A stretch of 40,447 bases of DNA from Leptospiraceae bacterium (GCA_031368925.1 JANMOF010000135.1:1-40447), one strand, 5' to 3'. Shown: positions 3,101-25,130, numbered from the stretch's first letter. Numbers and translations are program-made. The notes: generated from the sequence alone by a model not told the origin.

Positions 3101-3632
3101 AATTCCCCTGAATTTCCCTAATCATAACCTGTAAGCTAGTTTCCAGTGCATGGGAAATCTCTTCTTCCACGTGGAGATTTCCCTCTTTATCTACTTTGTT
3201 TCTTAAAAACGCAATATGCACAGCAGCTTCTTCGATTATCCGCGCTGACATCACGGATAACGTTTCAGATAATGATGCCTTAATAATTGGAGATGCATTT
3301 AAAAAGGCGACAGGCTTTCCTACAAACTCACCACTTGACACAACCCAATCAAGTGCATTCTTAAAAACGCCCGGAATTCCATGTGCATATTCAGGACAAG
3401 AAATATAAAATCCATCGGCTAATGCGAGTTCTCTGCGCCAAATTTTTACATTTGGTAGGACTTCGTCTTTATCTAGGTCTGGATTAAAATGAGGAAGCTG
3501 GTCGATATGTATACTAATTTTGAAATCTACATTCTTGGGTGCAAGCTTTGCTAACTCTTGTAAGGCTGCAAGATTGGAAGATCCCTTGCGTAGACTTCCA
3601 GAAAGTCCAAGTATTCTAATTCTATTTACCAT
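3090..3632 (-). CDS. NAD(P)H-dependent FMN reductase (flavodoxin-like fold, ChrR/YieF family)
   Basis: [16 protein letters not shown]-terminal motif, [21 protein letters not shown]. Length 180 aa. Confidence 0.8.
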
Positions 3633-4105
3633 TTACAATGCTCGATATTTATTTCAGTCCATTGGAGTGGGATCATATTGGGATGCATATTCTCATCTTC
3701 TTTGAGCTTTAAAACCTTTGCTGTTTTATCAAGTGCTTCAAATCCCCAATAGAATTTATGACCATTACGCGCAGTAGAAAGATCGGGACAATTGGCAAGT
3801 CCGCTATGGTATGTGGGTGAATACTGTTTGCCTTTGTCGTCGATTAGAATGTTGGATTGTAAAATAGTGCACGCGCTATAGTCTTTGATAAATTCCATCT
3901 CGATGACTGTCTTGCCCTTACCCACACAAATTTTATTGACTCTAATCTCGTTGTATGTGTTGACATGAAAAATTTCACAACATACGATGTCACCTTTTGA
4001 TGGTTTAGGTTTATCAGTCTTCGCCTTAACTTTCATTTCTCCAATTCTTGCAAAAAGCGAAACTGAAATAAAAGCGGCTAATAGTAATAATACTGTCTTC
4101 ATCAT
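3626..4105 (-). CDS. Secreted Cys-containing protein, tandem paralogue A (signal peptide, 159 aa)
   Basis: N-terminal hydrophobic signal MMKTVLLLLAAFISVSLFA. Conserved CC, NCP, F-W-F-E-LDK and C-terminal H-C-K-W motifs shared with the neighbouring ORF. Confidence 0.6.
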   Translation of the reverse strand: MMKTVLLLLAAFISVSLFARIGEMKVKAKTDKPKPSKGDIVCCEIFHVNTYNEIRVNKICVGKGKTVIEMEFIKDYSACTILQSNILIDDKGKQYSPTYHSGLANCPDLSTARNGHKFYWGFEALDKTAKVLKLKEDENMHPNMIPLQWTEINIEHCKW

Positions 4106-8954: not shown

Positions 8955-9922
8955 GATTAATCGTATCCGGGGGAGCCGGGTATATAGGAAGCCATATCGT
9001 ATGCGAGTTAAACGCCCGCACAGAACATGAAGTAGTTGTTGTTGATTCAATGGAAAAAGGTTGTGAGGTAAATCTTTTTTCCAAGAATGAATTTATCAGG
9101 GGGGATATTGCAGATGACACTATTCTAAAGAAAATCTTTTCGAAAAAAGTAGACGCAGTATTTCATTTTGCCGCCTGGAAAGGTGCAGGCGAATCAATGT
9201 TACTCCCTGAAAAGTATTCTATCAATAATCTGAACGGAACTTTAAAACTCCTAACTGCCATGTCAGAAAATGGCTGCAAGAAAATTATCTTTTCTTCTTC
9301 TGCCGCAGTCTACGGCGCACCAGTATATCTTCCAATAGACGAAAAGCATCCTTTGAACCAGGAAAATTATTACGGCTACACTAAATTTGCCATTGAAGAA
9401 AATCTTAAGTGGTATGATAAACTAAAAGGAATTAAGTTTGCCGCTTTGCGCTATTTTAACGCTGCGGGCTATGACACACAGGGTCGTGTGCGTGGATTAG
9501 AAAGAACTCCTGCCAATCTTCTTCCTATCATCATGGAAACTGCTTCCGGTATGAGAAAGAGTTTTGATATTTTCGGTGACGACTATGAAACACCTGATGG
9601 AACTTGCATCCGAGATTACATACACGTTAGCGATCTTGCTCTTGCTCATCTTTTAAGTTTGGATTATATTGTTGCAAACGAGAGTTCAATCACGATTAAC
9701 CTCGGCTCTGAAAATGGATATTCAGTAAAAGAAATTACTTCTATGGCTGAGAGTGTTGTGGGAAAATCCATTCCTCATAAGATCGGTCCACGTCGTCCTG
9801 GAGATCCCGCAAAGCTTCTTGCCTCCTCCGCTAAGGCGCGTGAGCTTTTAAAGTGGAAACCAGTATTCAGTGATTCCAAGACACTTATAGAATCTATGTG
9901 GAATGTATATCCTAGAGGGTAA
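8951..9922 (+). CDS. galE: UDP-glucose 4-epimerase GalE (SDR family). The ATGA start/stop overlap with lpxA indicates coupling
   Basis: GGAGYIGSH Rossmann motif. YGYTK catalytic YxxxK. 323 aa. Confidence 0.85.
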   Translation: MRLIVSGGAGYIGSHIVCELNARTEHEVVVVDSMEKGCEVNLFSKNEFIRGDIADDTILKKIFSKKVDAVFHFAAWKGAGESMLLPEKYSINNLNGTLKLLTAMSENGCKKIIFSSSAAVYGAPVYLPIDEKHPLNQENYYGYTKFAIEENLKWYDKLKGIKFAALRYFNAAGYDTQGRVRGLERTPANLLPIIMETASGMRKSFDIFGDDYETPDGTCIRDYIHVSDLALAHLLSLDYIVANESSITINLGSENGYSVKEITSMAESVVGKSIPHKIGPRRPGDPAKLLASSAKARELLKWKPVFSDSKTLIESMWNVYPRG

Positions 9923-9958
9923 TTTTAATTACTCTCTAGAATTTTAATGACCACTAAA

Positions 9959-10429
9959 CTATAAAGAATTCCAATTGTCTAATTTCTTAACGAATTCAAT
10001 TATCTTTGTTTGAAGTTCAAAATTAGGTTCATCTAAATCTCCAAGCGTGTAAAGGATTTTAGTCTTATCCTTTGCACCCATTTGGAGACTCAGTTCATTG
10101 AAACTAATTCCAACGTTATTCTTAATATCATCGCTTAACTCAACATTAATTCCCAAAGCATTTAGATCCAAAAGAGCATTCAATATCTTTATTGATTTAT
10201 CTTTAGGAATGAGTTCATCTATAGTTTTTTTTTCTTCCGGTTCGCCTGCAACGAATTTTCCTTTATAAGAATATCGTATGCGAAGTCCACTTCCCTCATT
10301 TTTCAAAACTATGTTCAGATCAAATTGGTACATTGGAGAAACCGGACCTGATGATTCAATCAATTCGATATAAACAGGAACTAAATTCCCGTGAGAGTCA
10401 AACAAATTTGTTTTATTTATTTCTGGCAT
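9959..10429 (-). CDS. Hypothetical 156-aa protein directly downstream of the first C1 peptidase
   Basis: ORF only, no recognisable motif. Confidence 0.4.
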   Translation of the reverse strand: MPEINKTNLFDSHGNLVPVYIELIESSGPVSPMYQFDLNIVLKNEGSGLRIRYSYKGKFVAGEPEEKKTIDELIPKDKSIKILNALLDLNALGINVELSDDIKNNVGISFNELSLQMGAKDKTKILYTLGDLDEPNFELQTKIIEFVKKLDNWNSL

Positions 10430-10534: not shown

Positions 10535-11845
10535 TTAACTAACGAATGCCGCAAAGCAAGGAGAAGACTCCATCAAAGCTTTCTTAGTGATGTAACAATA
10601 TCCTTTATCGCCCCAACTTGTTCCCCAAGAATTTTTCACTATGTAATAGTTTCCGATATAACCAACTATCAACATTGAGTGACACCCATGTTTTCCGGAC
10701 GGTTTTTCTGCTTGTCTCAAAATTCCATCTCGACCAATTTTCTGAAACTCTGTTCCTGTGTTCATATAAAATTCTACAGGTATACCCTTCGACAGTAATT
10801 TTTTCAGATCTTCAATTCCAACATTAACAGGGTTTAGCTTAATCTTGTAATTTGCCGCATCCTTATTCATTTCTTCTTCACTAACTTTTGGTTTTTTGTC
10901 ATCGTTAGGCCATAACTTTGCGCTGCAAATTCCATACTTGACTATATTCTTAAAAGGCTCAATATTTCCTGGAGTTCCATCGGAAGCAGCATGAGCTTTT
11001 TCAAAACTAGTGAATTTTTTTAGAAGTTTATGTGTGCGTAACATGGTATAGTTAGTAGAAAGTTCTTCATGCTTTTTGTTAGCCATTATTCGCAGCATTT
11101 CAAATCCATGTGTCATAGCATATGCTTTACAACGCCCAGTCTGTTTTTGGTTACCAATCGGAGAACAGTATTTTCTTAGATCAACTATTTCCTTAGGGTC
11201 TACATTTTTCAATTCATCTGGAAGTACTTGCGGTTTTGGTATTTCTTCTTTTCGAGGAGGATCTACCAAATGTAGATTTTCGGTTTGAAACTTCTGTCCG
11301 AAAATAGCTAGCAGAATAGCAAACGACTCCGGTGTTAAGAATCCCTGTGGAATTACCATGTCTCCGTTTTTATAAAACTTTATCGTATCAAAAGAAGAAC
11401 TTGGACTTTCAAAAGCTAATTGTTCATAGTAACTGCTAGCCGCTGCTTCTTCAACCGGTTCATTTCCTTCTTCAGCCATCCAATCGTCATATGATTCACC
11501 GAAATGTTCGTTGTCAGCAAAAACCTTTCCACCAAATTCCTCATAGTCTTCGTCTGACCAATCACCATTATCCTCTTCTAGCCATTCATCTTCTAAATCA
11601 TAATCAGCAGCCGACTCAAATGCATCGTCATCGTCACCAAGATCATAATCTAATTCTTCTCCATCATCTTCGGGCTCTTCCTCTGCTTCTTCTTCACCAG
11701 ATTCATCTTCTTCTGGCTCGTCACTTCCTGTATCATCCGAATCGTCTTCGTCCGGAGAAAAAAGTTGAAGATCCATTAAAAAAACTGGATGCAAAACTTC
11801 CTTATTATTCTCGCTTTCTATAATTACTTTTTCATTATTCTCCAT
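10535..11845 (-). CDS. Papain-like (family C1A) cysteine peptidase with a ~170-aa poly-acidic (Asp/Glu-rich) N-terminal extension and no signal peptide
   Basis: VDLRKY...SPIGNQKQTGRCKAYA (Gln/Cys region). GKHGCHSMLIVGY (His). YIVKNSWGTSWGDKGYCYI (Asn-Ser-Trp-Gly). N-terminus EDDSDDTGSDEPEEDESGEEEAEEEPEDDGEE. Confidence 0.8.
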   Translation of the reverse strand: MENNEKVIIESENNKEVLHPVFLMDLQLFSPDEDDSDDTGSDEPEEDESGEEEAEEEPEDDGEELDYDLGDDDDAFESAADYDLEDEWLEEDNGDWSDEDYEEFGGKVFADNEHFGESYDDWMAEEGNEPVEEAAASSYYEQLAFESPSSSFDTIKFYKNGDMVIPQGFLTPESFAILLAIFGQKFQTENLHLVDPPRKEEIPKPQVLPDELKNVDPKEIVDLRKYCSPIGNQKQTGRCKAYAMTHGFEMLRIMANKKHEELSTNYTMLRTHKLLKKFTSFEKAHAASDGTPGNIEPFKNIVKYGICSAKLWPNDDKKPKVSEEEMNKDAANYKIKLNPVNVGIEDLKKLLSKGIPVEFYMNTGTEFQKIGRDGILRQAEKPSGKHGCHSMLIVGYIGNYYIVKNSWGTSWGDKGYCYITKKALMESSPCFAAFVS

Positions 11846-12086
11846 TTTCCCTCCAGACCATGTCTGCTATTAGAAAGATTACTTTTATTTAATGAAATTT
11901 ATATGTCTATTTTTTTTTCCTATACCCTAATTCTTTTTAATAACTTATAAGCCTCAGTATTGTTTAATTATAAAACAACGGTAATAAAAAAGAATTACTA
12001 TTGATTATCCGCTATCATAAAATATTCTAGTTGAAGCTTAGACTGAGTATTATAAAATGCAACGAAAGAGTGGAAGGTATAAATAA

Positions 12087-12278
12087 ATGATTTTCTTAAT
12101 ATCTGTTTTTAAAATATTAATCTCAATTTTTATCGGGGCTTTAGTAGGTTTTTTTGGACCCTTTATCATTGCACAATTTGATGGAAATCCGGCATGGTCT
12201 TTCGTCACAATGATAACTGTTCCTATTGGTATGCTAATTGGGTTAGTGGTTGGAATAGTGATTATCGTATATAAATAA
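12087..12278 (+). CDS. Small membrane protein with two TM helices (63 aa)
   Basis: Two hydrophobic helices, follows AT-rich divergent promoter region. Confidence 0.4.
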   Translation: MIFLISVFKILISIFIGALVGFFGPFIIAQFDGNPAWSFVTMITVPIGMLIGLVVGIVIIVYK

Positions 12279-12467
12279 TCCCTTAAATGGGAATTGAATC
12301 GTACTATTTTTATTACATACAGATCATTCAATAAAAAACATGAGGATAATAAGGTATTTCCCCCTGCACTATACCCGGGCACCAACCTTAAAAGATAATT
12401 TTTCTTTCTTGACTAAAGCAATTACTTTTATTTTATTCGAATACTCGATAATTAAAAGGAGAGTTGT

Positions 12468-12779
12468 ATGAAATTTATATCCCCCGTTCTTAAAAGAACT
12501 ATTAAGGCAGATAAAACCAAATTAGCAGATTTACTCAAGATGATAAAAAAAACGGATGATCCATTTCTCATTGTCTCAGACAGCGAGATGACTTATATAC
12601 AAGTTTTCTGGACATCAAAGGGATACATTGTTGAATACCAGGAAGGTAGCATAAAAAAACACTACGAGTCAGTCAAAAGAGTAACAATGACGGAAGCGAG
12701 AAAATCAATTGAACTTTATATGGATGGAGATAAATCCTGGAAAGATCGAATTGAATATGTTAAAATGAAAATACAATAA
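12468..12779 (+). CDS. Hypothetical 103-aa cytoplasmic protein
   Basis: ORF with a GGAG-type RBS (aaaaggagagttgtATG). Confidence 0.45.
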   Translation: MKFISPVLKRTIKADKTKLADLLKMIKKTDDPFLIVSDSEMTYIQVFWTSKGYIVEYQEGSIKKHYESVKRVTMTEARKSIELYMDGDKSWKDRIEYVKMKIQ

Positions 12780-12891
12780 AATCTCATCGCAAATCAATTG
12801 CATTTGATTTGTGAAATAAAGATAAACTAGAAATCTAATTGCGAAAAATCTCTGCTATTTTATAATAGCCCAAATTTTTCATGGAGAAAAT

Positions 12892-13158
12892 ATGAACAAA
12901 ACAATTTTAACATTAATCGCTATGCTTGCACTTAGTTTTTTTTCCTTTACTTCTATTGTTGCTAAAGATAAAAACGAGAATGAAAACAAAAAGGAAAACA
13001 ATGATGATAAGAAAAGTTGCAAAAAAGAGTGCGGCGTAGCTCTCAATAATTGCAACACTGAAACTAGCAAAATCAGCAAAGAGAAGAAAGCTGAAAGAAA
13101 AGCAAATCACGAAAAATGCCAGAAAGCATTCACGGATTGCAAATCTTCTTGTAAGTAA
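12892..13158 (+). CDS. Small secreted Lys-rich, 6-Cys peptide (signal peptide plus a ~65-aa mature part)
   Basis: Signal MNKTILTLIAMLALSFFSFTSIVA. Mature part KDKNENENKKENNDDKKSCKKECGVALNNCNTE...CQKAFTDCKSSCK with a C-x3-C ... C ... C ... C-x3-C pattern. Confidence 0.5.
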   Translation: MNKTILTLIAMLALSFFSFTSIVAKDKNENENKKENNDDKKSCKKECGVALNNCNTETSKISKEKKAERKANHEKCQKAFTDCKSSCK

Positions 13159-13181
13159 TTTTTTACTAACCCCCTTACATT

Positions 13182-13466
13182 ATGCCCTACGATATTACAT
13201 TTTGCGGCGGACAGGATTGTCCGCTAAAAGAGAATTGCTTGCGTTTTACTGGAGTAGCTTTTGGTAGAAGAGATTATTTCGGAAACATACCGTATGATTT
13301 TACAAAAATGCAATGCGAGCATTACTGGGACGATAGACCGAGTGAGGATAATATTCGTTTACTTGCCTATAAGCTGTGGCAACAAGCAGGATGTCTCGTT
13401 GGTAAAGATTTGGAATATTGGTTAATCGCAAAAAACCAATTGATTTATAATTTGCGCAATTCTTAA
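13182..13466 (+). CDS. Small Cys-containing protein with a DUF2934-like C-terminal helical motif
   Basis: IRLLAYKLWQQAGCLVGKDLEYWLIAKNQL resembles the A-Y-x-L-W ... D-L-x-x-W-L motif of DUF2934-type proteins. N-terminus has C-x4-C-x6-C. Confidence 0.4.
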   Translation: MPYDITFCGGQDCPLKENCLRFTGVAFGRRDYFGNIPYDFTKMQCEHYWDDRPSEDNIRLLAYKLWQQAGCLVGKDLEYWLIAKNQLIYNLRNS

Positions 13467-13471
13467 TTATT

Positions 13472-13933
13472 ATGCTAACAAAAATTGAATCAGAAGTTTT
13501 GTTTGGAGCAATGAAACACGCACGAGTGGAAGGGGAATACATACAAATATCCTCATCTCCTATTGCCAAGAAAGAAGGCAATGAAATTTATACATGGAAA
13601 AATATTCATTCTAGTGAATTTCCAGTTTCAAATGAATTGTATGAGAATTGGGTTCTTAAAAACAAAGAGCCCATTTCACTAGATAATTTTTTAGAAGATA
13701 TAGAGGTTAAATTTACAACCTGGAAAGACTTTGATTCAATCAGTAATAATAAAGTATGGTCAGTATTGTATTCTTTTTCCAGACCAGGTATATCGAATGA
13801 TGGGAAATTTGCACTCGTGCAATTAACAGCATTTTGCCCCTCAGGTCCTCCGAATTACGGGAGTATTTTCTTACTTGAAAGGTCTACTTCCGGTTGGATT
13901 GTAAAATTTAACTATGGGTTATACAATCAATAA
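13472..13933 (+). CDS. Hypothetical 153-aa protein
   Basis: ORF only. Confidence 0.4.
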   Translation: MLTKIESEVLFGAMKHARVEGEYIQISSSPIAKKEGNEIYTWKNIHSSEFPVSNELYENWVLKNKEPISLDNFLEDIEVKFTTWKDFDSISNNKVWSVLYSFSRPGISNDGKFALVQLTAFCPSGPPNYGSIFLLERSTSGWIVKFNYGLYNQ

Positions 13934-14347
13934 TCATCTGCTGCTAGCGAGGATAATCGCTGTAATCTCTACAATGAGTAGAGGAAAAAGAGAGTAAATC
14001 ATTAAATTAAAATTTGATTCTATCAGGTAATTAGTGAACTTACCCTTACCTATTATCTTCTCTAAAACAATTACTGTACTATTAGGTGCATCATTAAAAT
14101 CTATCTGCACTAAATAAAAAAATATATAAAAGAAATTCATTCCCAAAAATAGCAATAAATCCAGCGCATCGGGATTAGGGAAACTCATTGTATTCAAAAA
14201 CTTCCAGCCTGCGTACAGGTGAAGGGCAGAAATCAAAAGAAATCCAATTCCAAAAATAAATAAAAACCATCCAAATGCAAGAACTCTAAATACAAGCATA
14301 AGAAATGTAATAATTACTAATGTTGTCTTAAGTGCGACTAATGCCAT
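13934..14347 (-). CDS. Integral membrane protein (4 TM helices), downstream of the second C1 peptidase
   Basis: Hydrophobic helices. Confidence 0.4.
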   Translation of the reverse strand: MALVALKTTLVIITFLMLVFRVLAFGWFLFIFGIGFLLISALHLYAGWKFLNTMSFPNPDALDLLLFLGMNFFYIFFYLVQIDFNDAPNSTVIVLEKIIGKGKFTNYLIESNFNLMIYSLFPLLIVEITAIILASSR

Positions 14348-14565
14348 ATTGCCTCTCTTTAATAAACCACATAGCTCGGCTGTTGGTCAATGTCAGTAAG
14401 TTAAGAAAGAGAAAAGAATGATTAACCGCGAAGGGCACGAAGAACGCGAAGAAAAGACTAGTTTTGATAAACTCCTTCGTGAACTTCGTGCCATTCGTGG
14501 TAAAAATTCTCTTTTTGCACAAACTCTTTTAGACATCGACTACGCTTTACGTTATGCGCTATTTT

Positions 14566-15921
14566 TTATTTATCTTCTTCCTCTTCATCATCATCTTCCT
14601 CTTCTTCGTCATCACCCTCTTCTTCGTCATCACCCTCTTCTTCGTCGTCTTCCTCTTCCCCCGAATCTTCGATTTGCCAAGTTTCAGTTAAGGTTGCTAA
14701 GAATTCCTCTTCTTCCTCAGAAAGATCATCAACACCTATGATTTCTCTTATATCATTTAAAATTTTTGCTAGTAAAGCAGCAGATAGATATTCTCCTACG
14801 AGACTTATTGATTCATCTAGAAGATCTTCATTGTCTTTTTCTTTCGCACAATTTTTTAGAATTGCTTTTGCAGACATAGTTACGCCCAATTTTTCAAGAG
14901 TGGTCTGCATATAAGTAGAGATTTCATCGTATTCTTCTTCACTAACATCTCCATCAGCTGCTGCAGCGGCTAATACGATTAGTCCGAGTCTAAACTCTAG
15001 CGGATAATCACCCATAGCATCTAGCATTTCTTGGTAGTCTTCCTCGCTCATATCTGCAAGTTCAGAATCATAGTCCCCAGTGATAGAAGACTCATCTCCC
15101 CAAGTAGATTCATCCACTTCAAAATTAGTAAGTTGCTTAATAATCCAAGTATCACCGTCATTGTATTTCGGATTAACCAGATAATCATATGGAATATAGC
15201 AATAACCCTTGTCTCCCCAATCCTCTCCCCATGAATTTCTAACAATAAAAACTTTATCTGGGTCAGAGTAGCCAACGCATAACATTGCATGTCCGCTGTG
15301 AGATTCCCTTGACTCTTCTGATGGAGTTGGAGCAGGGACTAATCCCGGTTTGCGCTGTGAGTCAAATGAATTAAATAAACTTAATCCAAAAATAATTGGA
15401 TGTCCTTCTGCTAATACTTGCTTCCAGGCATTTAAGTTTACCGGAACGGATTGCATATCTTCTACCACAAAATTTGCAGCTTCTGTAAAAGCTTCTTCCG
15501 GGGGCTCTTCCTTAAATTTGTCTATTTCATAGGGCCAAGTTCCTTCAGAACACGCACCTTTCTCTTGTAAACTTTCAATGGCAGACGCAATTACACATCC
15601 AGCATCTTCTTTAGCAGTTCCATCAATTTCTCTTGCATTATAATAAATGAAAAGCCTACTAACATCATAGCTGTCTATACCTTTGTGCTTTTTTACCAGA
15701 TATTCGTAAGCACCAGCTACTGCATTTGCGACACAACTTCCGATCTGGTCTTGGTCCTCTACTTTTGTCATATATTTCCTGAGATCGACTTTTGGAGGAA
15801 GCTTACTTGGAGCACTGCTACTTGCTGCATACTGTTTAGTTCCTGCTTTAGGTTTAGCCGCTTTGTAGCCATGAACTTGTCTTGATGAACCGTCTGCTCG
15901 ATTTAATGTAAAATTTGCCAT
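14566..15921 (-). CDS. Papain-like (C1A) cysteine peptidase fused to a TerB-like domain and a C-terminal poly-acidic tail. Probable start is the Met at 15921; the ORF extends to 15978
   Basis: KVDLRKYMTKVEDQDQIGSCVANAV, HSGHAMLCVGY and IVRNSWGEDWGDKGYCYI (C1A catalytic motifs). EFRLGLIVLAAAAADGDVSEEEYDEI...ILNDIREIIGVDDLSEEEEEFL (TerB-like). Tail EEEDDEEEGDDEEEGDDEEEEDDDEEEEDK. Confidence 0.75.
   Translation of the reverse strand: MANFTLNRADGSSRQVHGYKAAKPKAGTKQYAASSSAPSKLPPKVDLRKYMTKVEDQDQIGSCVANAVAGAYEYLVKKHKGIDSYDVSRLFIYYNAREIDGTAKEDAGCVIASAIESLQEKGACSEGTWPYEIDKFKEEPPEEAFTEAANFVVEDMQSVPVNLNAWKQVLAEGHPIIFGLSLFNSFDSQRKPGLVPAPTPSEESRESHSGHAMLCVGYSDPDKVFIVRNSWGEDWGDKGYCYIPYDYLVNPKYNDGDTWIIKQLTNFEVDESTWGDESSITGDYDSELADMSEEDYQEMLDAMGDYPLEFRLGLIVLAAAAADGDVSEEEYDEISTYMQTTLEKLGVTMSAKAILKNCAKEKDNEDLLDESISLVGEYLSAALLAKILNDIREIIGVDDLSEEEEEFLATLTETWQIEDSGEEEDDEEEGDDEEEGDDEEEEDDDEEEEDK
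14589..14658. repeat. Tandem 18-bp repeat of about 4 copies. Two are perfect (gtcatcaccctcttcttc at 14607-14624 and 14625-14642), flanked by degenerate copies. It encodes the (D/E)6 units of the acidic tail
   Basis: Read directly from the sequence. Unit is a multiple of 3. Confidence 0.8.
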
Positions 15922-16227
15922 TGTTGTTCCTTGAATTATAAAATCTAAATGAGAGAGAAATTTAAAAACTAAACCCATTAAAAAAAACTTATTGATTTAT
16001 TAAATGATAAATATTGAAATAGGCAAATTATTTTTTGCATTGCAAAATGTTATGCCAAACAAAGCAAGTGAGTCTTACTCTTATTATCCGGAAAACTAAT
16101 TTTATTTAAAAATAAGGTATGTATACTTACGTTAATGTTATATACAAAATAATCAAAAAAAAGTTTCTGGATTATTGCTTGGATAAAATTCCAAAAGTAA
16201 ATATCTCAAAATTAAAGGAAATAAAAA

Positions 16228-16440
16228 ATGAATATAGATAAAGCAGTAGATAAAGCATTCGCAGCAAAGTCATTAAAAGAAATAGCAGATGCGCCGGTAG
16301 ACGCTCTTAAAGGTGTAAGCGAAGGTGATGCAGAACTTTTACAAAAGGCATTCAATGTTAAAACAGTAAGGGACCTAGCTGAACTTAAGTATGTAAAATG
16401 GGCACAAGCAATTGTAGCTTTATCGGAAACTGAATCTTAA
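16228..16440 (+). CDS. Small 70-aa protein with a helix-hairpin-helix-like motif
   Basis: LKGVSEGDAELLQKAFNVKTVRDLA resembles an HhH element. RBS aaaggaaataaaaaATG. Confidence 0.4.
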   Translation: MNIDKAVDKAFAAKSLKEIADAPVDALKGVSEGDAELLQKAFNVKTVRDLAELKYVKWAQAIVALSETES

Positions 16441-16520
16441 AATATAGCTTTCTGAACAAAATACGGAAGTCTCATTTAATTTATCAGGCTTTCGTATTTT
16501 AGAAATCACTTAAAAACAGA

Positions 16521-16820
16521 ATGATAGCATACATAGTTACTTTTATTTCAGCCATCTTTGCTTTGGGAGTTGGAACGTTAGGCGGTTACCTAAGCTTTAA
16601 TCTTATCAAAGATGTTCGCGACGATTCAACGAGTATAATTGTTGGTTGGATTCTTTTAATCATTTCGCTTGCATACACTGCTAGCCCGACAATATCTATA
16701 ATATTAATCAAATCAGATCGAATAGGTTGGAGTTATATTTATAATATTTTATCAATATTGATTAGTATTGCTCTCATAGCAATACTAATCAGCTCTCTTG
16801 AAGCAGCAGCAAGACCTTAA
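16521..16820 (+). CDS. Small membrane protein (3 TM helices)
   Basis: Hydrophobic ORF. Confidence 0.35.
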   Translation: MIAYIVTFISAIFALGVGTLGGYLSFNLIKDVRDDSTSIIVGWILLIISLAYTASPTISIILIKSDRIGWSYIYNILSILISIALIAILISSLEAAARP

Positions 16821-16860
16821 TAATTCGAATCATTTCACAGGGACTAATTCAGATTATCCA

Positions 16861-18657
16861 CTATGACTTAATCTCATCTTTAATGTCTTGAATATCAGTT
16901 TTCTCAACGACAGGTATTTTCGGATTTGTTGCATCAGGAGTCTCTTCTTTTGGCGCAATATAACCGCCCTGCCCTGCTTCTACAATTTCTATTTCTACAT
17001 TAGATGCAATCGGTGCTCCCGATGGAGGTAATAATGTAAGAGAAAGCTTATGAACCGTGCTAAACTTAGGCATAATGAATGTTAGCTCGGATGCACTTTT
17101 ACATTCTGTTCCAATAGGATTACTAACTCCTTCCAAAAGAATTTTAGTTCCCTGTACAAATCCTGAACCCAAGATTGTTACCATCACGTTCTCTTGATTA
17201 ATCTCAATATTATTTGGAGTAACCGCATTGATTGCTATTTCTTTTCCAATTGCTTTACTACCCAAATAACCAGTTTGACTAACACCCATTAGCCCTAACA
17301 ATGTGGGCGGAATATCAGGAAGTCCTTGTAGCGGATTCCCGAGCGCGATGTTATAAATATAAGCTCCAATCGATACAATTGTAAATCCAAACAACTGTAA
17401 GCGGGACAAATCAACACTCCCCCCTTCACAAAATAAATTACTCAATTCAGGAGGTTTGGATTTGATTTCGTTCTTTGGTCTCTTTGCACCAAGTCCATTT
17501 GCAGCGATTAATCCACCGTAACTGATTGACATGAGCACTACAAGAGTAGGATTAAAGTCTGGAATTCTTCCATTTCGAAGTAGTAGCCCCTGACTTATAA
17601 TTACATACGAATAACTCCCAATAGCCGCTATCGTCCATACAAATGCCTGAAACTTAGAAAGACTGTAGCTATTAGTCGCTCTATCGGTTAGCATTAGTTC
17701 AAAAAAATATACAATAGAAGGTCTTTTTACTCCACCTCTCATTTTCATATCTCTTTCCTGGTGAGTTTTAATCAAACCTCTCAAAATTAGATAAAGAGAA
17801 ATCAGAAAAAGGATAATCACGATTAACCCGAAAAAACCAGACATCCATTTCCATGTTGGAGGCAGTAGTGTCAGTCCTACGAAATTGGAAGGGCGACCCG
17901 AAACAAATAATCTTATTTTCAGAGATTTACGAATTTGCCCCCCTTTCATTAGGTCTCTTTTTAAAGGTATGTTGAATTTTATTTCTTGTTCTTCATTGAC
18001 GATTGGAGAAAGATAAAATGGATGCTTCTCATCAATTTCAATAAAAGTATCTTCCCCTTTTTCGTTTTTTGATGATTCATAAAGCACAATAGTTAAATTA
18101 TAAATATCACTACCAAAGTTATTTCCCGTAAGTGTAATCGTATCTCCGCGTGTCCCACCTTCTGGATTAATGCTTGAGATAAATGGTTGTTTGCCCGGCT
18201 GGTCATTAAGCAAAGGAATAGTAAAATCAAGCACAGCCTCTAGAGTCTCAGGTGAATTAGGATACTTAGAAAAGAGTTTAATCTGTGTTTTCCCCGATTC
18301 GATTTTATAATAAGCGGCGACTAAAAAATTAATAATACTCGGATTTTCATAATCCTTCACAGCAGAGCCAACTATAATGTCTGTCTTTACTTCTCCAATT
18401 TGTATTCTCAGCTTTTTATCTTTTTTACCATTTAGCTCTTCAATTAACTCATCAGGCGTATCACTAACGATAGATACCCAATAAGTATCATTGGATAAAT
18501 CCTTAAAGCTAAAATACTCAATATCATATTTGGAATTCGACATCGTATCCGAACTCGGGTGAGGTTGTTGGGGCTGCGTAACATCGGTCGGTGTATTACT
18601 TATCTGAGCAAAAAGTAAAGACGGGATGAATAGCAGTAAAATTATTTTTTTAAGCAA
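16861..18657 (-). CDS. Membrane-anchored protein with a signal peptide, two IPT/TIG-like Ig-fold domains and a central multi-TM region
   Basis: Signal MLKKIILLLFIPSLLFAQ. ISSINPEGGTRGDTITLTGNNFG and VTPNNIEINQENVMVTILGSGF are IPT/TIG-like. Confidence 0.5.
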   Translation of the reverse strand: MLKKIILLLFIPSLLFAQISNTPTDVTQPQQPHPSSDTMSNSKYDIEYFSFKDLSNDTYWVSIVSDTPDELIEELNGKKDKKLRIQIGEVKTDIIVGSAVKDYENPSIINFLVAAYYKIESGKTQIKLFSKYPNSPETLEAVLDFTIPLLNDQPGKQPFISSINPEGGTRGDTITLTGNNFGSDIYNLTIVLYESSKNEKGEDTFIEIDEKHPFYLSPIVNEEQEIKFNIPLKRDLMKGGQIRKSLKIRLFVSGRPSNFVGLTLLPPTWKWMSGFFGLIVIILFLISLYLILRGLIKTHQERDMKMRGGVKRPSIVYFFELMLTDRATNSYSLSKFQAFVWTIAAIGSYSYVIISQGLLLRNGRIPDFNPTLVVLMSISYGGLIAANGLGAKRPKNEIKSKPPELSNLFCEGGSVDLSRLQLFGFTIVSIGAYIYNIALGNPLQGLPDIPPTLLGLMGVSQTGYLGSKAIGKEIAINAVTPNNIEINQENVMVTILGSGFVQGTKILLEGVSNPIGTECKSASELTFIMPKFSTVHKLSLTLLPPSGAPIASNVEIEIVEAGQGGYIAPKEETPDATNPKIPVVEKTDIQDIKDEIKS

Positions 18658-18720
18658 TGTTTGTCTCCCTTGGTAAATTAGAACTGTTTTACAGTTTTTT
18701 ATATCGAGAAAAAATGCAAT

Positions 18721-20418
18721 TCAAAATCGAAAATTAAACTTGGCATAGGATTCAACACTAGGCGTCACTATTCCATTGGTTGTATTATTTAGCATTGGCG
18801 GAATAAAGGCAAATTCAAACGCATCATTATCAACACCTAAATAATAAAATACTCCCGCAAGAACTAGCATTGATACTGCGCCTATCGCACTAGCATCTCT
18901 AAAATTTCGAAAGCCTACTCCAGCATGTTGATTATTCTTAACGACATTCGTCTGGTAAAAATACAGCAATGCAAAGTTATTAGTAACCTGTTGCTGTTGT
19001 TCCTGCGCTGTCCCCGAAAATTTTACATGGGTTTTATCAGCCGCTTGCTCGGTAGCCGATAATTGTGTAAACTTATTATAATCATCTAATACTGTATAAT
19101 AAGTAAGACCCATCACATCATCTCGTATCAGATCTCTGTGCGCATTAATTCTATAATTCCAATACTGAAAGCTAGCATAAAACAAAGCAACCGAATAAAT
19201 AGAGTATTGAGAAAAATCAAAATAGGTATAATCTAAAAAAATCTTTAAGCGGTTTTTGTAATAATCCTCAGTCTTACCCTGTTTTAATTTTGCATTCACA
19301 GTAAAAGGTTTTCCTTGTTCTATTTCTACTCCTGCATAATAATCTACATGATCTTCTTTTTCAATTCGAATTCGATTCTGACCAAGCGGCACAACAACGT
19401 TAGCCAGTGGACTTTCTCCCAGATAAGTTATTCCCAAGTAGACGCTTGCTCCCTCAGGATTTGTTTTAACCGATATTAATCCTTTCTTTTCCAATTTTTT
19501 TAATACAAATGAATACTTAGAAATAGATTCTTTTTTTAGATTAACAACCCTATTTAATGTTTCAAATCCTTCCTTTGTTATATTAACAGAATGCTTTCCT
19601 GCGGATACATCTGATTTGTCGAGAGGTGTCTTTCCTGCATAATGACCATCTATAAAAACGAGTGCATCTACTTCGTCGCCTGTATCAATTTGAATTGTTG
19701 CCATTTCTTTACTGAATAACAATTTCTTTACTTTAAAGCCAATCGAGTTCATTTCCTGGTAGGCGCGGCGAAGGGAGGTATTCTCGGAAATTTTTTCCAC
19801 TTTCCCATTCTTGCGATTTGTAAATTCTAAATTAATGGTAAGTGTATCATCTTCTGTTGTAATGTATTCACCTGTAATCACGTAAAAGCATTTATTTTTT
19901 CTTCCAATCTCAAGGTTTGATTCCAAAAGCGGAGGAGTCTCCATAGAAATCAAAGCTACATCCAACTTGATATAACGCGGATCTTTCTCGGGTAACGCAT
20001 CCTTAGCCCCTGAATTTAATTCATCTAATGATTTTCGATTAACTATCGGTTTACCTCTCTTAGCCGGTGCTTCTTTTGATTGAGCTCCGAAAGAATGGTA
20101 TACAACATTTTCTAATACATCTGAATCGAATACATATTTGAATCCATTTAGATTTGAAATGACTACGGATGGAATTCCATTCGACAGATACTGAAACTTT
20201 TCATTTTCTACTTTATTGCGAAATGGAAATAAGCAAAGCTTTCTAGATTTTTCGTATTCAACTTTTTCGGGTAGAGATTGATCTAAGAATTGAAAGTATT
20301 CATCAATTCCAAAAATGGAAAACGAAAACAGAAAAAAGAGGAGTAGACTTTTTAATATTCTTAATTTTAACAAAAATTCCATGATTTTATTCATTATCGT
20401 AAGATGAGTTCTTATCAT
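18721..20418 (-). CDS. PEGA-domain protein (two PEGA-like repeats), probably an envelope protein
   Basis: Literal PEGASVYLGITYLGESPL motif and a second copy VFIDGHYAGKTPL. Confidence 0.6.
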   Translation of the reverse strand: MIRTHLTIMNKIMEFLLKLRILKSLLLFFLFSFSIFGIDEYFQFLDQSLPEKVEYEKSRKLCLFPFRNKVENEKFQYLSNGIPSVVISNLNGFKYVFDSDVLENVVYHSFGAQSKEAPAKRGKPIVNRKSLDELNSGAKDALPEKDPRYIKLDVALISMETPPLLESNLEIGRKNKCFYVITGEYITTEDDTLTINLEFTNRKNGKVEKISENTSLRRAYQEMNSIGFKVKKLLFSKEMATIQIDTGDEVDALVFIDGHYAGKTPLDKSDVSAGKHSVNITKEGFETLNRVVNLKKESISKYSFVLKKLEKKGLISVKTNPEGASVYLGITYLGESPLANVVVPLGQNRIRIEKEDHVDYYAGVEIEQGKPFTVNAKLKQGKTEDYYKNRLKIFLDYTYFDFSQYSIYSVALFYASFQYWNYRINAHRDLIRDDVMGLTYYTVLDDYNKFTQLSATEQAADKTHVKFSGTAQEQQQQVTNNFALLYFYQTNVVKNNQHAGVGFRNFRDASAIGAVSMLVLAGVFYYLGVDNDAFEFAFIPPMLNNTTNGIVTPSVESYAKFNFRF

Positions 20419-20431
20419 TTTTTATCGGTGT

Positions 20432-21211
20432 TCATCCGTGTTCATCGGTGGTAATCCTAAACTTTTTTCCTAAAGACAAAACTAAAAATAAAATTCCAAG
20501 GATAGGAGTAAAGAGAGAAATTGGGGAAACTAAAAAATAATCCTTAGAAAAAGCAATCTGCTCTCCGAGTCCGGGTCCTAAAAATTCTGTTCCAAAATCA
20601 ATTCCCATATAACTAAAAATTGCAACTGTCATAATTACACTGGGAATTCCTGTTACAAATAAAATAAAAAGCATGGAGACCACTTCTGGAGCAATATGCA
20701 TCTTAAATAAATAATACTTATTTGCCCCCATGGTTTTTGCCGCGATGACAAAACCACTTTCTTTTACTTCTCTAACTTTACTTTGTATCGACTCATAGGC
20801 AAACGCCCAATCAGAAATAACAATTGCAATATAAAAAACAAATAGCTCTGAGCCCAGTGAATACAACACAATAATCGCTACTAAAAAAGAAGGAAGAGAA
20901 AGAAATACAGAGGCAACAGAATCAATTATAAAATTGGCATACTTACCTGTAGCATAAGATAAAAAAGAAATACAAACTGAGACAAACAATGTAATGGCTC
21001 TGGCAGGAATAGAAATTAAAAATGTAGTAAAGGTTCCGTATGCGTATAATGCGTATATATCTCTACCCAACCTGTCGCAACCTAGGGGATGATTCCATGT
21101 TTGAAATCCTATCACACTTGATTCGAGTAGGTTTACATTTACGGGAGCTTTAAAAAAAACTAATCCCAGGATAACCGAAAGAATAAAAAGTAATTTAAAA
21201 ATAAAAAACAA
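20432..21211 (-). CDS. ABC transporter permease, OppC/DppC-like
   Basis: N-terminal HPLGCDRLGRD motif (OppC HxLGTDxLGRD signature). 6 TM helices. Confidence 0.7.
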   Translation of the reverse strand: MFFIFKLLFILSVILGLVFFKAPVNVNLLESSVIGFQTWNHPLGCDRLGRDIYALYAYGTFTTFLISIPARAITLFVSVCISFLSYATGKYANFIIDSVASVFLSLPSFLVAIIVLYSLGSELFVFYIAIVISDWAFAYESIQSKVREVKESGFVIAAKTMGANKYYLFKMHIAPEVVSMLFILFVTGIPSVIMTVAIFSYMGIDFGTEFLGPGLGEQIAFSKDYFLVSPISLFTPILGILFLVLSLGKKFRITTDEHG

Positions 21212-21214
21212 CCT

Positions 21215-22102
21215 TTACTCCATCGACAATCTGAATTGCAAATTTTTTGCAAGTCGAGTCAGAATATAAAATACAATGCCTGAATAAAATAATAACGCGC
21301 GAAGAAGATTTTCATCTAAACTCTTTACAGCGTAATATAATGATTTGCCAATGCCGGGAAAGAAAAAAATCTCTTCCACAAGAATAGAGCCGGACAAAAG
21401 AGAACTAAAATCTATCAAAATAAAAATTAATAAGAGGGGAAGTATTTTTCTAAAAATATAATAAAACACAATACGAGCACGACCAAACCCACGGGTTTGT
21501 AGAAAGAAAAAATAATCTGAATCTATTTCCTTTTTTCCCTCATCGAGGCTAATATAAAATATCCGTGCAAACACGCGCGACCCAAGAGCAACTCCTGGTA
21601 ATATCAAATAGGTTGTATTACCAGCCTCATATCCTCCGGGTGGTAAAACTCCTAAGTATAAAAAGAAAAACAAAAAAAGTAAAATAGATACTACAAAAAT
21701 AGGAGTAGATAATATTAATCTAGAAAGAAAGAGGAAAAAATTCTCAAGAACCTGCATATCAAAGTAAATACAAGCAAGTGCAGTCGAAATAGAAGTTACT
21801 GAACCAAAAAAAATTGCGAAAAAAGATAATTGAATAGTAGGAAAAATTTTCTTCGCAATATGAGAACTAACGCTTTCTCCAGATTCAGTTTTCCCAAAGT
21901 CTAAAAAAAAAAGTGAGTGCATCGAATCCACAAAAGATTTAACATAAGAAGTTTTGTTGGCTAATTCTAATATGTCGCTCTTCTCTAAACTAGATTCTGC
22001 ATAAAGAAAGCTTTTATCCTGTGATCTAATCGTCGTAATGACAGAAATTAATACAGAAAGACAAAGAATAAAAACAGCAAAATGAGCAATTTCACGAATC
22101 AA
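21215..22102 (-). CDS. ABC transporter permease, OppB/DppB-like
   Basis: BPD-transport core with PGIGKSL (OppB/DppB PGxG signature). About 295 aa. Confidence 0.65.
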   Translation of the reverse strand: MIREIAHFAVFILCLSVLISVITTIRSQDKSFLYAESSLEKSDILELANKTSYVKSFVDSMHSLFFLDFGKTESGESVSSHIAKKIFPTIQLSFFAIFFGSVTSISTALACIYFDMQVLENFFLFLSRLILSTPIFVVSILLFLFFFLYLGVLPPGGYEAGNTTYLILPGVALGSRVFARIFYISLDEGKKEIDSDYFFFLQTRGFGRARIVFYYIFRKILPLLLIFILIDFSSLLSGSILVEEIFFFPGIGKSLYYAVKSLDENLLRALLFYSGIVFYILTRLAKNLQFRLSME

Positions 22103-22114
22103 CGAAAACTAATC

Positions 22115-22570
22115 CTAATTCGAAAAGGCAGCTAAGATATCATCGTAATTATTGGAATAAATCATCTTATTGCGCTCTTCTTTTAAATTGAGTGTCTTAG
22201 CAATTAGCGCTAATGTTTTTATATGCTCTTGAAATTTATTTTTAGGAACGATGAGTAGAATAAAAATGTGAACAGGCATTTTATCAATCGCATCAAATGC
22301 GATTCCCTCTTTCGAAAGACCGATAACAACTTTTAAATCTTCTACGAGGCTAACAGAGCAATGAGGAATAGCAACTCCACTTCCAATTCCTGTAGACATA
22401 GATCTTTCTCTATTGAGGAGAGATTCTATTATTTCTGCACTTGCAGTCTCTGAAATACTACCAATATGAACCCCGTGCTCTACAAGAATAGAAATCACGC
22501 TTTCTTTATCAGTAGCCTTCAAATCATAAATAATATTATTCGGTGTGATAAGCTCTAAGAGATGATTCAT
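22115..22570 (-). CDS. ptsN: PTS EIIA type-2 domain protein (PtsN/EIIA-Ntr-like)
   Basis: VAIPHCSV active-site His region and overall 151-aa EIIA-2 layout. Confidence 0.7.
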   Translation of the reverse strand: MNHLLELITPNNIIYDLKATDKESVISILVEHGVHIGSISETASAEIIESLLNRERSMSTGIGSGVAIPHCSVSLVEDLKVVIGLSKEGIAFDAIDKMPVHIFILLIVPKNKFQEHIKTLALIAKTLNLKEERNKMIYSNNYDDILAAFSN

Positions 22571-23514
22571 TTTCTTACAATGTATCTATAGAGTAAGTTT
22601 TTCGCTAAAATACTTTCTGTCACTAAATAAAAAATAATCCCATACAAAATAAAGAAAATTATGATAAAAATAATTGGTGGGAAAACTAGATTTGCTTGGA
22701 TTAAAAACCAACTTGCGATAAGCGTGCCTAAAGAAACAAAAAGAGATAGGAAAGAAGAAAGATGATGGCTCCTGCCGGGCGCGGAAAACAAAATATACCA
22801 AAGGCTTGTAAAATTTATGATTTTATTTTTGCAGAGTACCAAGTCATATCTATAGTAGTAGCTAAAGATAAATGCCATTACTGAAATTAGAATTATATCT
22901 AGAATAAAATTTTCCTGCCGCAAAAATAAAAATCCAACTAGCATAAGAAGATACAAATCTAAACTTTCCAATATCGAAAAAAAAGTAGGAGCGAACGAAT
23001 CTCCGACGGAAATAAAAGGATTCAGATACATGCCTGTGACAGAAGGAAAAAATGAAAAAGGCATTTCTGGGTTAACAGCAAATACGCTTAGCTTTATTAT
23101 ATGCATTCTTTCTAATATAAGTCCCAGAGCGACCGAAAGCAAGGAAAGAAAAAGCCCCATAGGAAATCTAAATTTATAAAACACATTTCCGCGAAGAGAG
23201 AAAATAAAATAAACGATAAGGCTAAAAGAAATTGTAAACCAATTCAAAAATCCAATCGGAGTAATTAAAAGATAAAGTGTAAGCTGATAAAAAAAACTTA
23301 AGTAGTAAATGTAACCAACTTTTAATTTGTAGTAGAGGTAAAATAAAGCAGCCGCTAGGTAGGCAAAAGAAAAATAAAACAAAAAAGATAAATCTTGAAA
23401 AACTGTAAATACTGCAATTGTAAATAGACTTATAAAAGCCAATACATCTACAAAAAAATCATTGGAAAAAACTTTAAACCCGCGGTTGGTTAATAAGATA
23501 CTATGCGACGACAA
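22567..23514 (-). CDS. Polytopic membrane protein (about 9 TM helices), function unknown
   Basis: Hydrophobicity only. Confidence 0.4.
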   Translation of the reverse strand: MSSHSILLTNRGFKVFSNDFFVDVLAFISLFTIAVFTVFQDLSFLFYFSFAYLAAALFYLYYKLKVGYIYYLSFFYQLTLYLLITPIGFLNWFTISFSLIVYFIFSLRGNVFYKFRFPMGLFLSLLSVALGLILERMHIIKLSVFAVNPEMPFSFFPSVTGMYLNPFISVGDSFAPTFFSILESLDLYLLMLVGFLFLRQENFILDIILISVMAFIFSYYYRYDLVLCKNKIINFTSLWYILFSAPGRSHHLSSFLSLFVSLGTLIASWFLIQANLVFPPIIFIIIFFILYGIIFYLVTESILAKNLLYRYIVRK

Positions 23515-24676
23515 AGTTTACCCCTTGTTTAATTTCATTTATGCGAGTAGACAAATCAATATGAGAAGGACAAAGTAAAGAACAAATTCCACACTCAAGA
23601 CAAACGCTTGAGTTAAATGCTGATTTGTCTTTTTCCAGGATCGCTCTTGGATTTGCACTCACAGGACAGTAATAGGAACAATCATTACAATCCGTGCAGT
23701 GTTTTTCTGTTTTCTCAAAATGAATTCTATCACAAATGATGACAGAATGATGCCTGTAGATGTCAAAAATAAATTCTGTTCCAATTTCATAAACTGGTTG
23801 CTTATCATAAAAAGAATTTACGGTGAAGTATTTATACTTTGATTGAAAGCTATTTAAAAAGTCCGCAAGATTCAAACCATTCTTTAATAAAAATGCTTTC
23901 GTTTCTCCCTCAAGGGTTCCACTCTGATTGATAATATTTACGGATACATATCGTTCATGAAACGGTATATTGAAATATAGCGCTCGAATTAAATGATAAA
24001 TTGTTTCAGGTCCTAAGTATAAAAATCTTTCTTTCGGAAAATCTTTTACTATATCTACGCCTACATGCTTATGCAAAAAATACCTTGGACTTCCTTCTGG
24101 ATAACGGTAATTAATCTTTTTTTCAGTAAGGAAGTCTATCGTATTTACGTTCGGGAAAATGTTACTTATATTTTTTTTTAGTCGCCCGAGTTCTTTTTTA
24201 TAGACTTCGAAGATTTTGGATTTATAATCAATAAGGTTCTCTTTTGTAAAAGGAGCGTACACAATAAAGGAATCCCTATCAGGAATGAGAGAAGAAAAAA
24301 GAGATGCAAGGGATTGCCCAGGAAAATCTAAAGAAACTACACTGGAAGAAATAATTTTTTCTTTTAATAAATCAAGCGCATACTCCCCATTAAACTCTTT
24401 AGGTCGATAATTAAGTTCACCATCAATTGTAAACTTTATGGTAGACGTACTTGGATAATAATTGGCAATTCCATTTACAGGGGATAATACCTTAATTGCA
24501 TCATCCTGAAAAACTGTATCGCCGATATTCAGTCGCCGGGGATACTCACCGACAAGAGATAATTTTTTTCCATGGAATTCGTTGTGAAGAGTAAGCTCAC
24601 TGAGTGAGGGGACAGGCACCCTTAGGTCAGTAGAGCTTTTAATTTTAAAGAATTGAGAAGTTTTGTAAGTTGCCAC
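23501..24676 (-). CDS. Protein with C-terminal 4Fe-4S dicluster ferredoxin domain. The N-terminal ~300 aa are uncharacterised
   Basis: CTDCNDCSYYCP and CLECGICSLLCP, two CxxCxxCxxxCP motifs. Confidence 0.6.
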   Translation of the reverse strand: MATYKTSQFFKIKSSTDLRVPVPSLSELTLHNEFHGKKLSLVGEYPRRLNIGDTVFQDDAIKVLSPVNGIANYYPSTSTIKFTIDGELNYRPKEFNGEYALDLLKEKIISSSVVSLDFPGQSLASLFSSLIPDRDSFIVYAPFTKENLIDYKSKIFEVYKKELGRLKKNISNIFPNVNTIDFLTEKKINYRYPEGSPRYFLHKHVGVDIVKDFPKERFLYLGPETIYHLIRALYFNIPFHERYVSVNIINQSGTLEGETKAFLLKNGLNLADFLNSFQSKYKYFTVNSFYDKQPVYEIGTEFIFDIYRHHSVIICDRIHFEKTEKHCTDCNDCSYYCPVSANPRAILEKDKSAFNSSVCLECGICSLLCPSHIDLSTRINEIKQGVNFVVA

Positions 24677-24700
24677 GAAGAACTTCCCCGAAGAGTTTAC

Positions 24701-24982: not shown

Positions 24983-25130
24983 ATTTAACTCGTCCCTTTC
25001 TTAAGTTTAAAATAATTAGAAATTAATTCAGGATTTGGCAAAGGAAATTTCCCAGAAACAAAACTCTCTGTGCCTCAGTGGCAATCTTTCACACAACCCT
25101 GAATCAGTAAATTTAATGTTTAGTACACTG

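Follow-up and report, generated by a model that had tools for sequence, protein, structure and literature searches.

A 40,447-nucleotide stretch of DNA from a Leptospiraceae bacterium (GCA_031368925.1, JANMOF010000135.1:1-40447; hereafter the window) carries two minus-strand genes for papain-like peptidases, here called PepA and PepB, which lie 2.7 kb apart and whose products both bear long runs of Asp and Glu (poly-D/E). Small open reading frames (ORFs) fill the space between them. Does this locus encode one functional system, or two enzymes that are merely neighbours? The initial annotation leaned to the former, describing the interval as a possible toxin, effector or conflict island. While the peptidase ORFs do border 10535–15978 as first stated, our analysis points to the second answer: PepA and PepB are probably encoded by two independent chromosomal genes for latent cytoplasmic xylellain-type C1A peptidases, adjacent through local synteny and not parts of one system. 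We favour this reading because the genes occupy separate loci in distant relatives and because each protein has its nearer homologues in other phyla.

Catalytic cores of PepA and PepB

Both proteins matched Pfam Peptidase_C1 above the cutoff of 20.7 bits (PepA, 62.6 bits over residues 221–422; PepB, 66.6 bits over residues 60–262, E = 4.4e-18), and the core motifs IVKNSWGTSWGDKGYCYI and IVRNSWGEDWGDKGYCYI were both found in the translated peptidases. As first annotated, the catalytic residues are intact: Q233, C239, H389, N405 and W407 in PepA and, in ORF numbering, Q76, C82, H230, N248 and W250 in PepB, with the Gln, Cys, His and Asn invariant in family alignments of 119 PepA and 121 PepB homologues. 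The His and Asn motifs of both line up with those of papain and cathepsin K. Structure comparison placed both proteins in the papain fold, with xylellain (PDB 3OIS) as the best structural match for each. Judged by sequence, PepA and PepB are catalytically intact C1A peptidases with predicted proteolytic activity.

Export signals were sought in both proteins. Neither has a hydrophobic N-terminal stretch (maximum Kyte–Doolittle 19-residue window ≤1.5), sequence inspection revealed no signal peptide, lipobox or transmembrane segment in either, and a Pfam search gave no match to Inhibitor_I29 at E ≤ 0.1, so that the annotated lack of a signal peptide and of a classical propeptide holds for both. 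Papain and cathepsin zymogens, in contrast, carry an I29 (ERFNIN) propeptide and a signal peptide and belong in an acidic-compartment context; PepA and PepB have none of these, and the N-terminal domain of PepA is specific to its family.

The two cores had also been called closely similar and paralogous. PepA and PepB are, however, just 31% identical over 207 amino acids (aa), and homologues of other phyla lie nearer to each protein than the two do to one another, indicating ancient paralogues of two different families rather than a local duplication.

Domain architecture and acidic appendages

PepB probably starts at M20 (coordinate 15921), giving a protein of 451 aa, because an AAGGA ribosome-binding site precedes M20, homologues begin there and the genes of relatives encode 425–450 aa. 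It aligned with xylellain, by a wide margin its nearest relative of solved structure, at 1.5e-43 in phmmer and at 2.6e-21 in Foldseek, with a template modelling score of 0.83 over 265 columns for 268 resolved residues. In the AlphaFold2 model (predicted local distance difference test (pLDDT) score, 85.7), a structured N-terminal segment with a β-hairpin precedes the papain fold, after which come a C-terminal domain of seven helices and a tail that is disordered. In the N-terminal segment, D29, G30, G37 and Y38 are invariant and pLDDT is 79–92; the segment is basic, with 7 Lys/Arg (K/R) versus 1 D/E, and as a short query it returned no matches in the PDB. The seven helices of the C-terminal domain were modelled at pLDDT 80–95 and carry two acidic motifs, ADGDVSEEE and VDDLSEEE. 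At E ≤ 0.01, 18 of 21 PepB-family members matched Pfam TerB (best, 4.8e-8), and database homologues carry PF00112 and PF05099 in precomputed annotations. Searched against PDB sequences, a profile of this region retrieved designed helical repeats only and no solved TerB structure. These profile matches support a TerB-like identity for the domain at the level of the family.

The PepB family is large and strikingly conserved: more than 1,148 proteins were significant among 8,000 scored candidates, and relatives are encoded on at least 570 stretches of GTDB species-representative genomes. PepB is 55–62% identical to proteins of Beggiatoa, Polyangia, Microscillaceae, Verrucomicrobia, Rhodoferax, Desulfonema and others, and this wide but patchy distribution with high cross-phylum identity is consistent with horizontal transfer. 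By eye, the hosts of PepB-family or xylellain-type genes (loci L012–L091) were often filamentous, gliding or social, examples being Polyangia, Beggiatoa, Thiothrix, Desulfonema, Cytophagales, Microscillaceae and filamentous cyanobacteria; gut Bacteroidales and Treponema carry such genes too. Ten PepB-family proteins have an extra C-terminal domain of ~70–100 aa beyond the acidic run, with the motif LTGFWIYTD or LNGFYIYTD and precomputed matches that include PF12200 and PF08239; here poly-D/E serves as an interdomain linker.

PepA belongs to a second family. Its AlphaFold2 model (pLDDT, 86.9; predicted template modelling score, 0.85) shows residues 60–220 structured and packed with the catalytic domain, while residues 1–53 have pLDDT <50 and disorder is predicted for residues 1 to ~55 only. 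The N-terminal domain is conserved in Leptospiraceae, Myxococcota, Acidobacteriota and Clostridia, with near-invariant D92, G94, W96, D100, Y101, F109, G110 and G116 and a conserved D.GDW..DY...F...FG motif across residues 92–116. In a search of 1.84 billion representatives, Peptidase_C1 directly followed this domain in every full-length match, that is, in the five proteins of ≥445 aa scanned and in the family members recovered earlier. The resemblance of GDWSDEDYEE to DGDVSEEEYDE raised the idea of a degenerate TerB in the middle of PepA, which we rejected on an hhalign comparison of the family profiles (probability <1%).

How do these architectures relate to known ones? Kordis and Turk 2023 (PMC10380794) have already named ‘C1-terB peptidases’ and intracellular xylellain-type C1A peptidases. 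PepB appears to have the C1-terB architecture, some of its homologues being named ‘C1A family cysteine protease/tellurite resistance protein B-like’ by the Joint Genome Institute, and it is probably a further member of this named, uncharacterised architecture. More broadly, signal-peptide-less intracellular C1A, xylellain-type and C1-terB peptidases of bacteria are recognised, with essentially unknown function (PMC12090721 and the relevant passages of PMC10380794). The latter passages name C1-terB in connection with transfer to fungi, assign it no function and do not mention the N-terminal segment or the poly-D/E tail. The annotated view that no described system corresponds to these peptidases was thus too broad for the C1–TerB and xylellain-type enzymes; for the polyanionic appendages it stands, as the literature searched contained no functional description of them. 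Likewise, neither the architecture of PepA nor family-wide poly-D/E on two separate xylellain-type families is described in that literature.

In its fold, its short N-terminal extension and its lack of a signal peptide, PepB fully fits the xylellain type. PepA, which is ~21–22% identical to xylellain, fits in that it shares the fold and has no signal peptide, but its extension is a 160-residue domain. This structured domain and the acidic leader are both absent from xylellain. The xylellain chain of 291 aa ends after C1, without the TerB domain and poly-D/E tail of PepB, and its substrate is unknown (PMC12090721). Papain-like peptidases of the intracellular kind occur widely among bacteria, and for none of them, including xylellain as the one of solved structure, is a substrate or physiological role known.

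Part of the xylellain N-terminus reportedly blocks the active site, with a ribonucleotide as regulator. By analogy, the basic segment of ~40 residues in PepB may block its own active site, and the TerB-like domain, with its two acidic DGD/DD-x-S-EEE motifs, could act as a metal-, ligand- or membrane-sensing switch. In PepA, the domain of ~160 residues that the model packs on the catalytic domain would act like a pro-domain. Most likely, both proteins are zymogen-like intracellular proteases that a signal releases from latency.

The acidic runs of both proteins lie far above chance (Table 1). That of PepA (residues 31–135) contains a single K/R, and that of PepB (residues 438–470) has pLDDT <50. 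Of the extensions first annotated, the C-terminal one of PepB, put at about 30 aa, is real at 33 residues, while the acidic region of PepA is ~105 aa long and not ~170. The appendages recur throughout both families. Among PepA-family members with a leader of at least 20 aa, 114 of 116 have a leader with ≥35% D/E (medians: 47% D/E, 0.9% K/R and a length of 112 aa). Of the 109 PepB-family tails that reach 10 aa or more, 99 contain ≥50% D/E within their first 30 residues; tail length has a median of 43 aa and ranges from 3 to 225 aa across the family. Acidic appendages are therefore conserved, family-wide traits of both peptidase families, which strengthens the part of the earlier interpretation that drew attention to them.

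Length is the variable property. PepA has 436 aa in the window versus 506–527 aa in relatives that are 80–89% identical (loci L010, L011 and L172–L175), and this gap of ~70–90 aa falls wholly within the poly-D/E run. The DNA encoding the PepB tail (14572–14658) contains imperfect 18- and 21-bp tandem repeats (Tandem Repeats Finder scores, 88–117), consistent with replication slippage.

Binding of cations or of a basic partner, electrostatic autoinhibition and service as a flexible linker are candidate roles for the appendages. The catalytic domain of PepA is net basic (34 K/R versus 21 D/E) behind its acidic leader, and we speculate that the asymmetric charge of both proteins, with a basic catalytic domain or N-terminal segment and an acidic leader or tail, would permit electrostatic contacts within one molecule. 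Calpains (clan CA, family C2) also join a cytosolic papain-like domain to an acidic cation-binding regulatory module, although the likeness is one of analogy only. A reading along these lines would make PepA and PepB members of a widespread class, marked by the appendages, of single-gene latent cytoplasmic proteases triggered by cations, polycations or basic nucleic-acid-binding proteins, either as a calpain-like stress switch or as a sensor-effector that detects phage DNA-binding proteins through nucleic-acid mimicry; the appendage would work with the TerB module in PepB and with the acid-rich pro-domain in PepA. We consider this specific trigger unlikely. More generally, the presence of poly-D/E in two families, the TerB fusion and the cross-phylum identity of PepB suggest strongly constrained, regulated proteolysis.

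Gene order and the island question

We next turned to the possibility that the peptidases and small genes co-operate, for instance as effector proteases paired with immunity or membrane partners, in an island with a toxin, effector or conflict function in which the acidic tails mimic nucleic acid. The block order in the closest relatives is in keeping with this idea. With the same flanks, the block is found in the Leptospiraceae loci L010, L011 and L172–L175, and close relatives keep the order LpxA, GalE, 156-aa protein, PepA, 63-aa peptide, 103-aa protein, DUF2934 protein, 153-aa protein, membrane protein, PepB, 70-aa protein, TIG and PEGA. The contigs of these close relatives reach 425 kb and encode an LpxA that is 95% identical to that of the window. 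Only the 88-aa and 99-aa ORFs are contig-specific. An accessory nature of the 5.5-kb block as a whole is at odds with this stability of order and flanks and with the conservation of four of the five small ORFs. In these relatives, PepB is 91% and PepA 85% identical to the proteins of the window, comparable to the housekeeping neighbours LpxA and GalE (93–95%); the value for PepB is unlike that of fast-evolving conflict genes.

In more distant Leptospiraceae the peptidases part company. Locus L001 lacks PepB and carries PepA and its 156-aa partner among other genes than in the window, L002–L004 carry PepB with the pair of DUF2934 and 155-aa genes but no PepA, and L005 carries PepB alone. Among 92 sequences (91 fetched loci plus the window), two C1 ORFs occur in the window only. 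When ORFs lying no more than 3 kb from the C1 gene were clustered across ~90 loci, no neighbour family was common to several phyla, and the recurrent neighbours were promiscuous sensor kinases and Leptospiraceae-specific genes only. The Leptospira-specific DUF1564 family was seen nearby in relatives.

Nor does the block look like a genomic island. The window has no tRNA, no mobility gene (integrase or transposase) or flanking repeats were found, the GC content of the block (0.30–0.39) is not anomalous against that of the window (~0.30–0.43), the block lies between LpxA/GalE and TIG/PEGA housekeeping and envelope genes, and presence or absence among close relatives does not set it apart. A search with PADLOC gave no match among ten proteins of the region, an NCBIfam scan of the same ten returned nothing meaningful, and no conserved co-occurrence with defence genes was found, leaving no sign of a known anti-phage system.

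Two further observations could still be read in favour of a role in conflict. TerB domains form part of two anti-phage systems, Bunzi and Shango (bioRxiv 10.1101/2022.05.11.491447), and xylellain-type C1 genes are frequent on viral contigs. TerB is described as membrane-associated, with an unknown exact function and a hypothesised role in phage defence (bioRxiv 10.1101/2022.05.11.491447). Bunzi, Shango and the ter operon share a TerB-like domain with PepB; they are, however, systems of several genes whose partners are helicases, ATPases or transmembrane proteins, whereas one gene encodes PepB, without a conserved partner or a PADLOC match. Viral contigs carried many xylellain-type C1-only genes, in agreement with the literature, and neither the TerB fusion nor the N-terminal domain of PepA was seen among the 80 best viral loci of either scan. 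A third observation comes from Clostridium sp. PL3 (L007:6001–8433), where, reading along one strand, a PepA-family peptidase gene comes first, next a gene for a homologue of the window's 70-aa protein and then one for a stand-alone 165-aa TerB, possibly an in-trans version of the C1–TerB link that is fused in PepB; the 70-aa protein, though, lies beside a C1 gene in just 1 of 80 metagenome loci.

A functional island is thus very improbable: synteny is stable only in close relatives, the genes are separate elsewhere, and there is no shared neighbour, PADLOC match, tRNA or mobility gene. Its removal as a false lead leaves stable, lineage-specific synteny, and PepA and PepB are best treated separately.

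Several points nevertheless weigh against our proposal of two independent, latent cytoplasmic peptidases. The block is intact as a unit in the nearest relatives, and PepA and PepB may be co-regulated in this lineage. The PepB of the window itself scored below the Pfam TerB cutoff of 24.4 bits, at 16.9 bits as a full protein and 19.8 bits for the isolated region. Occupancy of the active-site cleft by the N-terminal regions of PepA and PepB is something that we infer. The putative cytoplasmic location has the absent hydrophobic leader as its sole basis, which leaves a small chance of non-classical export. Finally, xylellain-like peptidases of plant vascular pathogens have been proposed to act on plant proteins (PMC12090721).

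The last two points bear on an alternative in which PepA and PepB are virulence or nutrient-acquisition proteases exported by a non-classical route, their N-terminal regions being propeptides that are cleaved outside the cell; the best structural matches after xylellain are indeed secreted zymogens. We regard export as improbable. Besides the missing signal peptide, lipobox and transmembrane segments, TerB is intracellular or membrane-associated, no secretion-system genes lie near the loci read, and the families are widespread in free-living Myxococcota, Cyanobacteria, Beggiatoa and Leptospiraceae. In the passages of PMC10380794 that treat them, signal-peptide-less bacterial C1A peptidases are intracellular.

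Genes around the peptidases

The five small plus-strand ORFs between the peptidases and the two minus-strand ORFs 3′ of them were all found as described (Table 1).

Table 1 Features of the PepA–PepB locus and its right flank (window coordinates).
Feature	Coordinates	Strand	Remarks
156-aa protein, 3′ of PepA on the same strand, lineage-specific partner	9959..10429	-	
PepA, 436-aa C1A peptidase: poly-D/E leader, family-specific N-terminal domain and C1	10535..11845	-	
PepA C1 catalytic domain, residues 221–436	10538..11185	-	
PepA family-specific structured N-terminal domain, residues 60–220	11186..11668	-	Candidate pro-domain
PepA acid-rich region, residues 31–135	11441..11755	-	54 D/E of 105
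63-aa transmembrane peptide ORF, divergent from PepA	12087..12278	+	Maximum Kyte–Doolittle 19-residue window 2.84
103-aa ORF	12468..12779	+	Strong AGGAG before start; no Pfam/NCBIfam family match
88-aa ORF, signal-like N-terminus, Lys/Cys-rich body	12892..13158	+	Contig-specific
94-aa DUF2934 protein	13182..13466	+	Pfam DUF2934 3.1e-08, above cutoff
153-aa ORF, travels with DUF2934 gene	13472..13933	+	
137-aa membrane protein 3′ of PepB, lineage-specific	13934..14347	-	Maximum Kyte–Doolittle 19-residue window 2.41
PepB, 451-aa putative C1-TerB peptidase from M20 (corrected, probable start)	14566..15921	-	ORF reaches 15978 (470 aa)
PepB poly-D/E C-terminal tail, ORF residues 438–470	14569..14667	-	28 D/E of 33
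PepB linker and TerB-like helical domain, ORF residues 286–437	14668..15123	-	
PepB C1 catalytic domain, ORF residues 59–285, from LPPKVDLR mature-N-terminus motif	15124..15804	-	
PepB basic N-terminal segment, ORF residues 20–58, motif RADGS.R.V.GY	15805..15921	-	
70-aa DUF4332/phasin-like protein, divergent from PepB	16228-16440	+	
99-aa strongly hydrophobic ORF	16521-16820	+	Between 70-aa gene and TIG gene
Right-flank gene run: TIG-domain membrane protein, PEGA-domain protein, two ATP-binding cassette (ABC) permeases, phosphotransferase system (PTS) EIIA-2, 4Fe-4S protein, GT2 glycosyltransferase	16861-26684	-	
Large multi-HAMP chemoreceptor gene, beyond right-flank run	26869-29970	+	

The 156-aa protein is conserved 3′ of PepA in L001 (51% identity), L010, L011 and L172–L175, and the two genes are probably co-transcribed in Leptospiraceae. 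In staphopain and staphostatin operons, a protease is encoded with its cognate inhibitor. By analogy, PepA and the 156-aa protein could form a protease–inhibitor (or protease–chaperone) pair, an arrangement compatible with PepA being an independent, latent peptidase. The 156-aa gene lies directly 3′ on the same strand at every Leptospiraceae PepA locus read, with 51–86% identity, and the protein is predicted from its sequence to be soluble. Its 19 homologues, however, are all apparently from Leptospiraceae, while the PepA family spans many phyla without it, and it has no match in Pfam or NCBIfam, including their known inhibitor families, or in PADLOC. We give such a pairing a small chance.

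For the 63-aa, 103-aa, DUF2934 and 153-aa genes, which are neighbours of the peptidases, we claim no functional linkage. Homologues of the 63-aa transmembrane peptide occur in L010, L011, L017 and L172–L175; in L017, a Leptospiraceae metagenome-assembled genome, the homologue (3398–3637; 57% identity over 47 aa) sits directly 5′ of a PepB homologue, and the two genes are divergent. The strand of this gene is uncertain, because gene callers place an ORF of 60–65 aa on the opposite strand in L172–L175 (window coordinates 12050–12385, minus, versus 12087–12278, plus), against the frame with protein-level conservation, which is divergent from PepA. The 103-aa ORF is 90% identical in L010 and L172–L175.

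Pfam profile search bore out the DUF2934 assignment of the 94-aa protein, which is conserved in L010 and L172–L175 (85%) and in L002–L004 (54%). The 153-aa ORF is conserved in the same loci at 58–59% and 35%, respectively. The two genes travel as a pair (window 13182–13933, L010:151–920 and L002:11379–12142), and converge with PepB even where a relative of 76% identity has no PepA nearby. The 137-aa membrane protein was found in the closest relatives only and is absent beside PepB in L002–L005.

Absent from all relatives, the 88-aa ORF lies on ~310 bp (window 12780–13180) that are missing from the collinear L172–L175 and L010; in NCBIfam it had only a weak, sub-threshold match to TIGR04561. 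Similarly, the 99-aa ORF fills a gap of ~420 bp (16441–16860) that measures ~70 bp and lacks the ORF in L172–L175. No terminal repeats or ends resembling miniature inverted-repeat transposable elements were found around either ORF; a perfect 14-nt inverted repeat lies inside the 99-aa ORF (16759–16791).

The 70-aa protein is 96% identical in relatives and belongs to a family with at least 178 metagenome loci, many of whose contig names come from the same few samples. It was considered as a conserved partner of C1 peptidases, since homologues adjoin C1 genes in the Clostridium locus and in an alphaproteobacterial locus (L079), and was set aside: the single C1-associated case among the 80 metagenome loci is a near-identical (96%) relative.

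A promoter scan of the region gave fewer promoter-like sites than shuffled controls. A terminator-like hairpin with a 12-bp stem (window 9912–9939), the sole one in 9.8–16.6 kb, separates the GalE gene from the 156-aa gene. As these two genes converge, it could be a bidirectional terminator.

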